This document shows, piece after piece, positions 57,611-64,000 of a stretch of DNA of 64,000 bases (position 1 is the first letter of the stretch; every line of letters begins with the position of its first letter). The DNA is from an uncultured cyanobacterium. GTDB lineage: Bacteria; Cyanobacteriota; Cyanobacteriia; Leptolyngbyales; Leptolyngbyaceae. A program made the translations under genes and the position numbers. The stretch covers positions 33,212 through 97,211 of the forward strand of contig CAVYAN010000041.1 in NCBI GenBank assembly GCA_963766075.1, read 5' to 3'. The notes under the pieces were generated by a model, which searched no databases, was not told the origin of the DNA, and saw only the letters and a program-made list of their open reading frames with translations.

Positions 57611-57720
57611 AGTTTGCCCCTAGTTGAAATCTCAATGAGAAAATTTGCAGTAGAAGGGGGTAAGGCAGGGTTAACCACAAATCCTCTTGCCGCCCTTTGT
57701 TACGTTGTGTGGGGTTTGCC

Positions 57721-59393
57721 ATGCGCCAAGTTGCCCAGAAAAACCAAATTTCCGTCAAAGCCTATGCCGGATCAACGGGAGTTTTGCTGGGCATTACCCT
57801 AGAACCGGAGCGCCGTTCAGGGCTATTGGGATTTGCCATTGCCCGCCGGGATGGTCGGACCGGCAAAAAAGAATGGTTGACAGGACTCCTGGATTTCCCT
57901 GGGAGTGCCCATCCGCCCGGTACGCCGATTCCTAGCAATCGCGCCCCATTACAAAAATTTCGCTGGTCCGATTACCGCGTCTACCCCGGCATTGTCTACG
58001 AGTACACGATCTATGCTGTCTACGGCACTCCTACCAAACTAGAATTGGTCCCTGGACCCACCGTTACCGTCACGACCGCCAGTCCTACGGATGAGCACTA
58101 TGTCCTCTTCAACCGGGCGGCAGCGGCCAGCCAAGCCTTTTCCCGCAAGTTTCCCGAAGTGGAACAGCAACTGGCTGCCGCCCGCAAAGCCAAGCAGGAA
58201 CCGCCACCGCTGTCGCCTGTCGTCCTAGACTGGCTCAGTCGGGGTGTCCTGGAAGAAATTATTGGCGTGATCAACCGGGCTGCTGATGCCACTTGGGGTT
58301 TGGATATTGCCATCTACGAATACGAACTCCCCGCGATCGTGGCAGCGGTAGTGGCAGCCCATCAGCGCGGGGCCCAAGTCCGCATCGTTTACCACGCTAA
58401 ATCCGATGATCCCCAAACGGCTGAAAATATCAAAAATCTGGTAGATTTGCCTCCGACCTGCCTCCGAGGCCGCACCACCAGCAAAATCTTCCATGACAAA
58501 TTCATCGTCCTTAGCCGGATTCAAGCTAACGGCTATAGTCCTGCTGTGGTGCTCTGTGGCTCAACGAATTTCACCCACAATGGCGTCTATCGGCAGGCCA
58601 ACGTGGTGCATCGATTAAACGATCGCGCGATCGCCCAGCAGTACCTGAACGTCTTTAACCTGCTCTTCAGTGGGGCCGATCCCAGCAGCACCCGGCGCTG
58701 GATCAATCAGAATAATCCCCTGCCCAATCCCTCGGCTACCGTTGCAACAAACAGCACTGTCTTTGCTGGGTTCTCGCCGAGATCGGGGGTGGGGATCTGA
58801 CGGGGTTTATCAACCGCATCCAGAGCGCCAGCCAGGATGTCCTCTTCTGTACGGCCTTCGATCTGTATGATCCCTTGGAACAGGCGCTCCTAGGGCAGCC
58901 CCACGACGCCATTCTGCGCTACGGTCTACAAAATAGCCGCAGTCAAATCACGGGCATCCATGCCGATCGCACAGCCGATTTTGTTACCACAGCGATGCTC
59001 TCCGAGGGGTTAGAGGGCTTTCTGAAGGAATCCACCAAGGGACAGAAAGGCAATATTCTGATCCACACCAAGCTGATGATCGTTGACTTCACCAGCGATC
59101 GCCCCATCGTGATCAGCGGGTCCCACAATTTGTCCAAAGTGGCATCCGAAGGCAATGACGAAAACTTTTTAATTCTGGAGGGCAACCTGCATCTGGCCGA
59201 CTGCTACGGCTGCGAACTGATGCGCCTTTATGATCACTATCGCTTCCGGTTTCGGACGAACAATCCTGACCCCCGCCATCCCACCGCGCCCTTAAGCTTG
59301 GTAGCCGATGATAGTTGGACACAGCCTTACTTTGAGGAGGGCAGCTTGAAAGCGCGCGATCGCCAATGTTTTGCCGGGGTTCATGTCCTATGA
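57721..59393 (+). CDS. Phospholipase D superfamily protein with two HKD motifs; apparent frameshift near 58790
   Basis: HDKFIVL...GSTNF in the first ORF, HTKLMIVD...GSHNL...NDEN in the second; a linking frame reads GDLTGFINRIQSASQDVLFCTAF. Confidence 0.85.
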
Positions 59394-61306: not shown

Positions 61307-61534
61307 TTACCGATGGTCGGGGGTAGATCCGCGCATGCCCCGCGAGGCGACGCGAATCACAATGGGGGAGTTACGCAGGGGCACAATGGGACTCCATTCG
61401 CTGGCGGCGATGACGTTGAGGCGATGGAGCAGGTGGATCATGGCTTCGACGGCGGGGGCTTGGCCGCTGAGGGTGATGTTGATCCAGTCGGAACTGTGAG
61501 CCGCTGGGTCGCGGCTCGGGGGTGTCATATTCAT
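61307..61534 (-). CDS. Small hypothetical protein (75 aa) of a cyanobacterial family (..I.LLH.L.....EWSP..P)
   Basis: AAAGGAG RBS 8 nt before the ATG at 61534; ITLSGQAPAVEAMIHLLHRLNVIAASEWSPIVP. Confidence 0.75.
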   Translation of the reverse strand: MNMTPPSRDPAAHSSDWINITLSGQAPAVEAMIHLLHRLNVIAASEWSPIVPLRNSPIVIRVASRGMRGSTPDHR

Positions 61535-61569
61535 GGTTGGGTCTCCTTTGTTTGTTTGTGGGGGAAGAA

Positions 61570-61797
61570 GACCCAAAAACCACAGCCACCCCGAATGCGT
61601 TGCAAAACAGGGTGGCTTGTAAAATGAAACAAGCCGCCATGCTGGAGCTATCAGCTTGGGGGTTAGCGATCGCTTGGTGTTGGTAGCACTGGGCGATCGC
61701 GTTTTAAGACCGAGGTCTTTGGGCGTCTGGGCGAGTGCTAAACCTAAGCGCACTCACCTTAACGCAAGAGAATACCGAATTGCGCCGCACTTTGCAA
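61570..61797 (-). promoter_or_regulatory. Promoter and structured attenuator-like 5' leader of the small gene
   Basis: TTGCAA(61797-61792)-17 nt-TATTCT(61774-61769); 5' hairpin; GGCGGCTTGT/ACAAGCCACC overlaps the terminator-like stem AGCCACCCTG/CGGGGTGGCT followed by GTGGTTTTT. Confidence 0.65.
61631..61705 (+). ncRNA. Putative cis-antisense RNA of about 75 nt
   Basis: -10-like TAAAAT 61620-61625; ends in hairpin GCGATCGCTTGGTG-TTGGTAG-CACTGGGCGATCGC + GTTTT, which pairs fully (3 G-U) only as plus-strand RNA. Confidence 0.55.
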
Positions 61798-61866: not shown

Positions 61867-61962
61867 TCAATATTCGAGAACCCGTATTCAATATTCGAGA
61901 ACCCGTATTCAATATTCGAGAACTCATATTCAATATTCGAGAACTCATGAACTCATATTCAA
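61867..61962. repeat. 21-bp tandem repeat, about 4.5 copies
   Basis: Unit TCAATATTCGAGAAC(C/T)C(G/A)TAT repeated head to tail. Confidence 0.92.
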
Positions 61963-61988: not shown

Positions 61989-62954
61989 TTAGGCATCTAA
62001 GGGACTGCGCACCCCCAAACCGCCCCGATTGAGCACATGGGTATAGATCATCGTGGTTTTGACATCCTTGTGGCCGAGGAGTTCTTGGACGGTACGGATG
62101 TCGTAGCCGTTTTGCAGCAGGTGGGTGGCGAAGGAGTGGCGAAAGGTGTGGCAGCCGATGCGTTTGTCGATGTTGGCCGCGCGAACAGCAGTTTTCAGCG
62201 CTTTTTGGATGTTGCTGGGGTGAAGATGATGCCGCTGCACGATGGCACTGCGGGGATCGCGCGATCGAGTGCTCGATGGAAAAACAAATTGCCAAATCCA
62301 CTCACGGTCGGCATTGGGGTATTTGCGTGCCAGCGCATAGGGCAAATAGACCGCGCCATAGCCTTGGTCTAAATCTTGCTGATGGGTGCGGCGGACTACG
62401 TTTAAATGCGTTTGCAGCGGTTCAATCAGCCGTGCGGGCAGCATCGTGACCCGACTTTCATTGCCTTTGGCGTCGCGAACGATCAGTTGTCGCTGAGCAA
62501 AATCCAGATCCTTGACCCGCAAATTTAGCCCTTCGCTTAATCGCAGTCCACTGCCATAGAGTAATTGCACCACCAGCCCTTGAACACCAAAAAGCTGTCG
62601 AAAAACCGTCTGAACTTCCGGCGGCGTAAGGACCGTCGGAAGGTAGCGAGAAGATCGCGCTCGGAGGGCATCAATGGTGTCGAGTTCTTGGTGCAGAACC
62701 TGGCGGTATAAAAAAAGAAGCGCGCTGAACGCCTGATTTTGGGTGGAGGCAGTGACTTGCTCTTGAACAGCGAGATGGGTGAGAAACGCTTCGATTTCGA
62801 CCTGGCCCATGTCTTTGGGATGTCGTTTGTTGTGAAACACGATGTACCGATAAATCCATTGAACATAGGTTTTTTCGGTACTGAAAGCATAGTGCTTGAG
62901 GCGGAGCACGTCACGCACTTGGTCTAACAGCTTACGCGGGCGAGGTTCTAGCAT
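61989..62954 (-). CDS. intI: Integron integrase
   Basis: [43 protein letters not shown], plus the IntI-specific insertion [26 protein letters not shown]. Confidence 0.97.
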
Positions 62955-62971
62955 GGGATATCCGTAAATTT

Positions 62972-62985
62972 AGTACTTATGTATT
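62972..62985. promoter_or_regulatory. Possible cyanobacterial LexA box upstream of intI
   Basis: AGTACTTATGTATT versus consensus RGTACNNNDGTWCB (1 mismatch), 17 nt from the intI ATG. Confidence 0.5.
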
Positions 62986-63082
62986 AGATAGTACTCGAAT
63001 TGATTCAGTAATAAGTCTAAAGATTTACGGAAGAAATTGGCGCACGGCTTTGTCCGTAGGATAGGATTTCAGTGAGATTAGA

Positions 63083-63230
63083 GATTCGGCATAACTCCCC
63101 CTATAGAGGTAGATATGCAGAATTGTTTCTGCATAATGTTCTGTAGGGGGTAGATATGCCGAATCTTTCTGCATATCTACCTCTAGGCAGGGAGTTATGT
63201 AGAAAGATTCTCTATAAAGAGTAGTTGTGC
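63083..63230 (+). other. attI region; recombination core GTTGTGC at 63224-63230
   Basis: GTTGTGC is the exact reverse complement of the R'' box GCACAAC of the downstream attC; preceded by repeated ~20-bp motifs. Confidence 0.8.
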
Positions 63231-63317
63231 CGCTTGAGTTCTCGGTGGTGGTGCAGTCGAAATCTCAGTCACTGATAAATTTGAGGTAGAGTGAGGACTG
63301 CCTATATCGTATTGAAT

Positions 63318-63650
63318 ATGTTGATTCCGAATGCAGAAAATGCAGTCGTCGATATTCGTAAACTACGCGGCTACTGCTTGAATTCAGAGCACGACGACGG
63401 AAAGCATAAAGCTCGGCTTTTTTCATCAATTCTTGGCATGACGGCTGATGACGCTGAAGAGTTACGCCAAATTTTGCTAGAAGTTGTCATAATTCATGAA
63501 GCTCAGGTGGGGCTGCAAGATGAGTTTGGGCAGCGCTATACTCTCGACTTCACGATTAAATGGCACAATAGAGGTGCAACTCTTCGGAGTGGTTGGATTA
63601 TCGAGCATGGCTCGGAGATTCCAAGATTAACAACCTGCTATCCTCTGTAG
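63318..63650 (+). CDS. Cassette gene 1: DUF6883-like putative toxin/nuclease
   Basis: IPNAENAVVDIRKLRGYCLNSEHDDGKHKARLF..LG...FGQRY...WII.....PRLTTCYP. Confidence 0.8.
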   Translation: MLIPNAENAVVDIRKLRGYCLNSEHDDGKHKARLFSSILGMTADDAEELRQILLEVVIIHEAQVGLQDEFGQRYTLDFTIKWHNRGATLRSGWIIEHGSEIPRLTTCYPL

Positions 63651-63668
63651 TACTTGGAGGTGATACAA

Positions 63669-63917
63669 GTGACGAAGAACACAGCTAAATTGCTAGATGT
63701 CGTGGCTTTGACAGTTGATTTGCCCGAATACAACCTTTGGTGTGGACAAGTCGGAACTATAGTTGAGCTACTAGCTGATGGTGAAGCGTTTGAGGTTGAA
63801 TTTAGCGATTGGGATGGACGAACGTTTGAGTCCATCGGATTGCGCCCAGAGCAAATCATGGTGTTACATTTTGAGCCAGCATCACCTGACTTGAAGCCTG
63901 AAATGGTTACAGCATAG
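63669..63917 (+). CDS. Cassette gene 2: DUF4926 family protein (putative partner/antitoxin)
   Basis: GGAGG RBS; LLDVVALTVDLPEYNL..GQVGTIVE....AFEVEFSD.DGRT. Confidence 0.88.
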   Translation: MTKNTAKLLDVVALTVDLPEYNLWCGQVGTIVELLADGEAFEVEFSDWDGRTFESIGLRPEQIMVLHFEPASPDLKPEMVTA

Positions 63918-63921
63918 CGCA

Positions 63922-64000
63922 GCACAACAACGCTGTTGCAACGGACGGTGTTCAAACTCTGGAAATGACTCGAAAACTTGTGCCGCCGCTGAACAGCAAC
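63922..64000 (+). other. attC of the first cassette; R' box lies just beyond the window edge
   Basis: R'' GCACAAC, L'' GCTGTTGCA with an extra G, L' TGAACAGC ending at 63997. Confidence 0.85.

Follow-up and report, generated by a model that had tools for sequence, protein, structure and literature searches.

A multicopy small-protein module of cyanobacteria with a probable antisense-locked leader switch

The window analysed here, a stretch of 64,000 nucleotides from an uncultured cyanobacterium, contains a unit of about 500 bp composed of a promoter, a 228-nt leader, an ORF encoding a 75-aa protein and a predicted cis-antisense RNA. Its comparison with related loci points to a self-contained antisense-locked module, and the leading explanation, which we consider about evenly balanced between right and wrong, is a selfish addiction module of the type I toxin-antitoxin (TA) kind with a new soluble effector. 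The antisense-locked switch taken on its own is likely, as judged from comparative sequence evidence. A first-pass annotation had noticed the switch at this single locus; the observation was confirmed as genuine, and it extends past this locus.

Anatomy of the module

The sense features lie on the minus strand. The sense promoter (61769 to 61797) shows the -35 hexamer TTGCAA (61797-61792) and the -10 hexamer TATTCT (61774-61769) separated by a spacer of 17 nt, as the first-pass annotation had placed them, and is conserved as TTG(C/A)..TAnnnT variants in paralogs and in other genera; from its position, the transcription start should lie at about 61762. The structured, bistable leader of about 228 nt (61535 to 61762) is supported by the leader alignment and by a folding z of -7.85, with none of 200 shuffles as good. 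It contains, from 5' to 3', the 5' strand of a putative long-range helix, P0 (61714 to 61723), whose ON-state partner at 61572-61581 is indicated by own-copy duplex energies; hairpin 1 (61666 to 61700), with a variable loop at 61680-61686 that reads UUGGUAG on the plus strand; hairpin 2 (61632 to 61664), with a variable loop at 61645-61651; the antiterminator strand A (61630-61644), which is the 3' side of hairpin 2 on the mRNA; the switch strand B (61608 to 61620), which would pair with A in the ON state or with C in the OFF state; a terminator-like 3' arm (61575 to 61593) formed by strand C (61593-61584) and U5 (61579-61575); and an anti-SD hairpin (61539 to 61574) predicted to sequester the RBS, whose SD sequence AGGAG is at 61547-61543. 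The 5' side of hairpin 2 on the mRNA shows a C5 run able to pair with strand C, and the strands of the anti-SD hairpin covary jointly between lineages on inspection of the alignment. The leader is followed by the ORF of the 75-aa soluble protein (61307 to 61534), which belongs to an unnamed cyanobacterial family. Leader, RBS and ORF are as previously described, and the two mutually exclusive pairings that had been drawn between A (61638-61629), B and C are in place, with comparative support for both A:B and B:C.

Hairpins 1 and 2 are shared by both strands: hairpin 1 would be the terminator-like 3' hairpin of the antisense RNA and the first target loop of the mRNA, and hairpin 2 the 5' hairpin of the antisense RNA and the second target loop. 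The predicted cis-antisense RNA, of about 75 nt (61631 to 61705, plus strand), contains these two hairpins and U4, and is supported by strand-biased folding, covariation and a covariance model. Its putative -10 box, TAAAAT (61620 to 61625, plus strand), is where the first-pass annotation had located it and sits in the loop of the A:B hairpin. The plus strand from 61628 to 61712 folds into two hairpins and then U4 with a z of -5.07 (0/200 shuffles as good), and the recomputed fold agrees with the 3' hairpin proposed earlier, with a 14-bp stem, three G-U pairs and U4 behind it. The stem of hairpin 1 at this locus consists of two HIP1 octamers. A simple consensus scan of the locus called no promoters and left the proposed terminator uncalled, its sole terminator-like site being the A:B hairpin; since the scan misses both promoters and the terminator, these calls rest on conservation and not on consensus strength. 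In this genome, the antisense promoter lacks both an extended TG and a -35 box at the usual distance. The multicopy family, the second variable loop (61645-61651), the long-range helix and the anti-SD hairpin are additions to the first-pass annotation.

Conservation of the antisense RNA, the switch and its loops

The covariance model of the antisense RNA (R1) was built from 40 leaders of nine genomes. In all 40, the antisense -10 hexamer (TAnnnT or CATAAT) is placed 13-16 nt away from a fixed anchor; it occurs in five variants (TAAAAT, TATCAT, TATGAT, TAAGAT and CATAAT), and 15 leaders have an extended TG. Folding of the two-hairpin region favours the antisense strand in 39/40 leaders. The antisense consensus structure is 95.4% paired, with compensatory change in 12 of the 21 pairs; no shuffle out of 500 is paired to that extent or attains the covariation score, and pairing in slid controls is 30-47%. 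The outer pairs of hairpin 1 are 96.7% paired and nine of the ten show compensatory change. The leaders are related to one another, so tallies of this kind make them look more independent than they are. Stem sequences of the HIP1 type are swapped in other lineages for other complementary sequences, with the pairing kept, G-U pairs included. The antisense stems covary in the leaders of homologues, where the first-pass annotation had proposed to look, and the cis-antisense RNA that it claimed, still a predicted transcript, gains comparative support from the constant -10 box and from hairpins that covary in a strand-asymmetric manner.

On the sense strand, the ON-state pairs are 88.8% paired and B:C 90.8% (0/500 shuffles), and substitutions in strand B are tracked by both A and C, so A:B and B:C covary via the shared strand; the covariation of the ON-state helices is mostly one-sided, and two of the five measures are no better than in shuffles. 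Strand A pairs downstream in 40/40 nascent folds in which C is not yet made, and A:B forms in 39/40 leaders once B:C is barred. The two states differ at the decision point by a median of 2.25 kcal/mol (range -6.3 to 7.6). B:C is dominant at equilibrium in most copies when the antisense RNA is absent, so the ON state would need kinetic folding. Bistability per sequence is modest relative to shuffles: 14 of 15 sequences fall below the shuffled mean, and only in five of the 15 are three or fewer of 40 shuffles as low.

Helix P0 joins the segment before hairpin 1 with the U-run and the first part of the anti-SD strand, and would thus compete with the conserved anti-SD hairpin. It was analysed in 98 of 112 leaders, with 14 left out for N, a contig edge or no C match. 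The own duplex has a mean energy of -23.1 kcal/mol versus -15.5 for cross-genome duplexes and -11.9 for shuffles; own is stronger than cross in 96/98 leaders and in 28/28 genomes, and sense is stronger than antisense in 86/98, figures to be read knowing that the A-run of P0 also templates the U-run of the antisense RNA in many lineages. A U-run of at least four behind C is present in 18/18 copies of this genome and in 62/98 overall, and in at most half of the copies in 8/28 genomes; P0 persists in genomes where the U-run is lost. Predicted RBS openness is higher without B:C than with the antisense RNA bound in 34/40 leaders (mean unpaired 0.39 versus 0.23); the copy of this window and the four or five paralogs nearest to it are exceptions, with no P0 predicted and an RBS that stays closed in either state. 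Since P0 is kept while the U-run is missing in several lineages, translational switching looks like the conserved core of the switch, and transcription termination is probably an added layer where a U-run exists. The transcription attenuation claimed by the first-pass annotation is no universal output of the family.

The 18 leader-bearing copies of this genome all have different loop pairs, with 16 and 17 distinct loops. Cognate loop duplexes have mean energies of -7.2 and -8.4 kcal/mol versus -0.7 and -1.2 for non-cognate ones; cognate complementarity is automatic for a cis-antisense RNA, and the informative result is the uniqueness of the loop pairs. Within three subfamilies, these loops diverge by 0.40-0.52 versus 0.01-0.09 for the stems, with 0.00-0.30 in other loops and spacers and 0.21-0.34 at synonymous sites, and the same contrast between loops and stems is seen in two further genome groups. 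The hairpins keep a loop size of 7 nt, and the loop content is variable. The loop UUGGUAG, on which the first-pass annotation had relied as a ColE1-type YUNR loop, is indeed found in two ColE1 RNA I loops and is the modal 3' loop of the family, with the modal base at every position, but that exact loop is present in 10/107 leaders overall and in one of the 18 copies here. Among 80 3' loops of 7 nt, 69 carry U at position 2 and 57 carry A at position 6, and YUNR is found in 52/107 loops versus 23% of random 7-mers. These counts (10/107 and 52/107) reject a strict requirement for UUGGUAG or YUNR; the likeness to the ColE1 RNA I loop is real as a loop type, with the exact sequence unnecessary. 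A cis pseudoknot joining the two loops was also considered and rejected, the loop-loop energy within the same copy being -0.09 versus -0.58 with other copies. The copy-specific loop pairs suggest a family of mutually insulated, possibly self-preserving modules.

The sequence anatomy, the covariation, the loop diversity and the purifying selection are direct observations, from which we infer transcription, kissing, termination and toxicity. During leader transcription, strand A would pair with B and melt hairpin 2, the freed C-run would be captured by strand C, and P0 would take up the U-run together with the first part of the anti-SD strand; without antisense RNA, transcription would read through and the RBS would be more accessible (ON). 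The 75-nt antisense RNA would kiss the two mRNA loops, zip across hairpins 1 and 2 and strand A, and force B:C, giving a terminator where a U-run exists and anti-SD:SD pairing everywhere (OFF). Since kissing would begin at the loops, their divergence would insulate each copy from the antisense RNAs of other copies, and a new loop pair would escape neutralisation by those of resident copies.

Protein family, distribution and genomic surroundings

The protein family shows the core xxLxGSxxxVxxxIHxLHxxxxxxxxxWSxxxxxxxxxxVxxIxxR. The paralog ORFs of three subfamilies have pN/pS values of 0.07, 0.00 and 0.03, which indicates strong purifying selection, and a maximum 19-residue hydropathy of 1.06 identifies a soluble protein without a transmembrane helix. 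The AlphaFold2 model is beta-alpha-beta (pLDDT 83.6). The ORF of this locus has no Pfam match and its protein no PDB sequence match; no Pfam or PHROGs family is shared among 118 members, nor an NCBIfam family among 18. In the ESM Atlas, the clusters retrieved (0.80-0.82) are all cyanobacterial and unnamed, with no named match that could be used; Foldseek finds nothing in PDB or BFVD at E<=0.001. The best hits of a VIA fold search are uS10 (Z 4.3, rmsd 2.2, 53 aligned), non-significant, and MinE (Z 4.1, rmsd 5.4, 64 aligned), non-diagnostic; neither the family libraries nor the fold search gives a toxin family or fold.

This genome contains 22 protein matches and 18 leader-bearing copies, 14 with an intact ORF and four with a broken one. 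A profile search finds the protein in 113/301 genomes of the class, often with at least 19 copies, and the family comprises 688 clusters at 50% identity. The covariance model matches 39/151 genomes of the class and 30/85 genera, with a maximum of at least 31 copies per genome. From 316 listed model matches, 69 were inspected: the top match in each of 29 genomes, and additional ones picked partly from genomes with more RNA than protein matches. The ORF behind the switch belongs to this protein family in 50 of the 69 and to five other types in 15, and the remaining four are incomplete or ambiguous. Since 15/69 switches front five unrelated ORF types, the switch is portable. These five types (loci L119/L123/L152; L125/L143-L148; L149/L151/L153; L150; L155) have no family matches; one such ORF shows a weak match to HTH_36, below the cutoff, and no Rep family was found among the alternative ORFs scanned. 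A possible 14-codon leader peptide lies upstream of a switch-borne ORF in genome G049. In genome G068, CRISPR-like repeat arrays are immediately preceded by switch copies that front an unrelated ORF of 72 aa (L184:5562-10400 and L190:6700-9900), and L184 has a WCX-domain gene upstream. Locus L017 (C109:5591-5701) shows the first 35 codons of the small ORF fused in frame to an AAA ATPase body, which we take to be RarA-like and which could be under switch control or an assembly artefact.

Rfam gives no match at the locus (E<=10) or, with its models run on 14 related loci, at E<=1. The protein has no match in 50,697 phage records and, with one query, is present in 13/72,556 plasmid records; among the six inspected, a tyrosine integrase lies close by in three, par and rep genes in one and a divergent HTH gene in one. 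A search for related loci gives two weak non-cyanobacterial matches in genome contigs, and nothing in metagenome and viral contigs.

Each switch-bearing copy is solitary among genes unrelated to it; TA, restriction or integrase genes and palindromic repeats are frequent nearby. Outside the switch, the neighbour in this window is an integron-type tyrosine integrase (61989 to 62954, minus strand), followed upstream on the same strand by a DUF6883-DUF4926 pair; it is the only full-length copy in the assembly, and a 3' remnant of it is found at five other module copies. The region 61989-64000 has the layout of an integron: the integrase, an attI-like long imperfect repeat (63072-63216), DUF6883-DUF4926 and an attC-like end at the contig edge. 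At C31, C65 and C17, the module occurs together with the same internally deleted integrase and the attI-like region, and one of these loci also has the same DUF6883 gene; since the integrase and attI-like region accompany the module at three other loci, this platform has been copied as a unit. Tandem-repeat arrays of about 21 bp, with three different units, flank many module copies (61870-61960 in the window; C117, C22, C76 and C10), and an unnamed family of about 135 aa recurs beside module copies in several genomes (L030, L073, L074, L185 and C117), the one member tested having no Pfam or PHROG match. Elsewhere in the window, at 57697-59393, a phospholipase D-like gene appears split in two, the resulting ORFs (367 and 172 aa) both matching PLDc_2.

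Some family members show a simpler leader type or none recognisable. The simpler leader consists of one or two hairpins just 5' of the RBS (L102, L103, L108, L109, L208 and L210); the four tested do not match model R1, and it is possibly a second antisense system. Members without the switch leader lie either opposite an XRE gene that adjoins an HNH nuclease gene within Dnd-type regions, or behind a DUF7662-HTH gene. A conserved unit is formed by an HNH nuclease, a convergent XRE gene, a divergent small ORF and palindromic operators, often beside Dnd (phosphorothioate) genes (L038, L041, L043, L046-L049, L054, L057 and L062). Since the gene often adjoins an XRE repressor where the leader is absent, tight repression appears general.

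Function, related systems and significance

The solitary multicopy spread, the purifying selection on each copy, the loop diversification and the mRNA that would be doubly locked favour a selfish addiction module; a toxin function of this type I TA kind is slightly short of an even bet, with the four broken ORFs among 18 and the lack of a transmembrane helix counting against it. Rather less probable is a wider reading of the family as class-wide selfish chromosomal modules with a natural two-loop RNA address code, in which new copies would need loop pairs orthogonal to the antisense RNAs of all residents, which would put about 10 nt under diversifying selection, the switch would have been recruited to several unrelated small ORFs, and the main cargo would be a new soluble toxin or anti-defence protein, alternatively controlled by an XRE repressor.

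The best-surviving rival keeps the same antisense switch and takes the protein as an establishment or zygotic-induction gene of mobile DNA instead of a toxin: an anti-defence factor, recombination helper or regulator that would fire once on entering a cell without the cognate antisense RNA, loop diversity letting each incoming element fire among resident relatives. The plasmid homologues near par/rep, tyrosine integrase or HTH genes fit it, as do the divergent, cI/cro-like XRE context in HNH and Dnd-type defence regions, the unrelated ORFs behind the switch (one with the sub-cutoff HTH_36 match) and the several copies of this genome that travel with an integrase remnant. We nevertheless consider it unlikely, because most copies are solitary between host genes without a downstream operon, phage records lack the protein (0/50,697) and plasmid records rarely have it (13/72,556, one query), and the 14 dispersed paralogs are under purifying selection, consistent with a benefit that accrues to the individual copy. 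A cis-acting leader switch that responds to a protein or ligand (autoregulation by the small protein would be one case), with the plus-strand features as by-products, would account for bistable helices acting on the sense strand, for the resemblance of the protein to half of an RNA-binding ferredoxin-like fold (the non-significant uS10 hit, Z 4.3) and for an inverted repeat round the -10 box that may be an operator; it is improbable, given that hairpins 1 and 2 are G-U-biased to the antisense strand, that the antisense -10 box survives through five sequence variants, that unrelated ORFs also lie behind the switch and that a shared ligand would conserve the loops, yet they diversify. A non-coding dispersed repeat (a MITE-, REP- or attC-like DNA hairpin on HIP1) with a passenger ORF, in line with the many copies, the palindrome- and HIP1-rich flanks and the nearby integron, is very improbable in view of an ORF pN/pS of at most 0.07, stems that lose HIP1 in other lineages and keep their pairing (G-U included), two conserved promoters and module boundaries at which inspection finds no target-site duplications or shared terminal repeats; G-U pairing on one strand also makes an attC identity of hairpin 1 a disfavoured assignment.

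Antisense-triggered attenuation is known from Gram-positive plasmids: in pT181 and pIP501, the leader has a cis-antisense RNA with two stem-loops, an exclusive terminator and antiterminator, and specificity borne by the loops. The module resembles them in its predicted cis-antisense stem-loops opposite the leader and upstream of the terminator, indicated by covariation and the -10 box, and in an exclusive antiterminator and terminator sharing one strand, for which the shuffle control is modest. In contrast to them, the switch controls a small non-Rep ORF (50 of the 69 matches inspected), the module is chromosomal, with up to at least 31 copies per genome and no Rfam similarity, and its U-run appears dispensable in some lineages, the predicted translational output being conserved. 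Both plasmids are named for transcription attenuation driven by antisense RNA in PMC5415839. ColE1 RNA I (RF00106) shares 7-nt kissing-type loops with the module, the modal UUGGUAG being equal to two RNA I loops, but has three hairpins where the module has two, and its target is a replication primer instead of an mRNA leader; the RF00106 model, which finds ColE1 itself, matches neither the locus (E<=10) nor the 14 related loci (E<=1).

Type I TA comparators are ldr-rdl, ibs-sib and hok-sok, and the cytosolic SymE and RalR (PMC12390103, PMC2887945). The module shares with type I TA systems a small ORF with a predicted cis-antisense RNA that has its own promoter, an RBS predicted to be sequestered in the primary transcript, and repeated stand-alone loci. 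It differs in that its protein is soluble and non-transmembrane, with no family shared by its members in Pfam, PHROGs or NCBIfam that would link it to a known type I toxin, cytosolic ones included, and in that its antisense RNA would act on a conformational switch lying roughly 100 nt 5' of the RBS. Type I TA systems were previously unknown in cyanobacteria according to a 2025 paper (PMC12390103). The cyanobacterial type I candidates, MsoT1/MsoA1 (PMC12390103) and Ncl1450/Ncr1470 (bioRxiv 10.64898/2025.12.20.695498), are described in the text available as membrane peptides; they share with the module a small ORF and an antisense RNA, and are set apart by description only, no two-loop leader switch or paralog family being described for them in the same text. 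The accessible part of PMC5126843 contains nothing relevant to the module family. A description of the family was not found in the literature covered, which consists of main texts drawn largely from non-subscription sources; tables of sRNAs and TSSs of cyanobacterial transcriptomes, or the candidate tables of PMC12390103, could list members. The module is unexplained by any library entry searched, and the regulatory kind itself is known.

The RNA family, which Rfam lacks, occurs in roughly one in four of the genomes sampled from the class. With 688 clusters at 50% identity, the small-protein family is abundant and unnamed, and the analysis offers a hypothesis for what it does. The unique loop pair of each copy makes the evolution of antisense specificity directly testable within one genome (18 x 18), and the family offers native orthogonal RNA switches to cyanobacterial engineering. 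If the two-loop address code is true, the family would represent a multicopy, non-membrane type I-like system in cyanobacteria, of which none was found in the literature searched, and a ready-made library of orthogonal RNA regulators.
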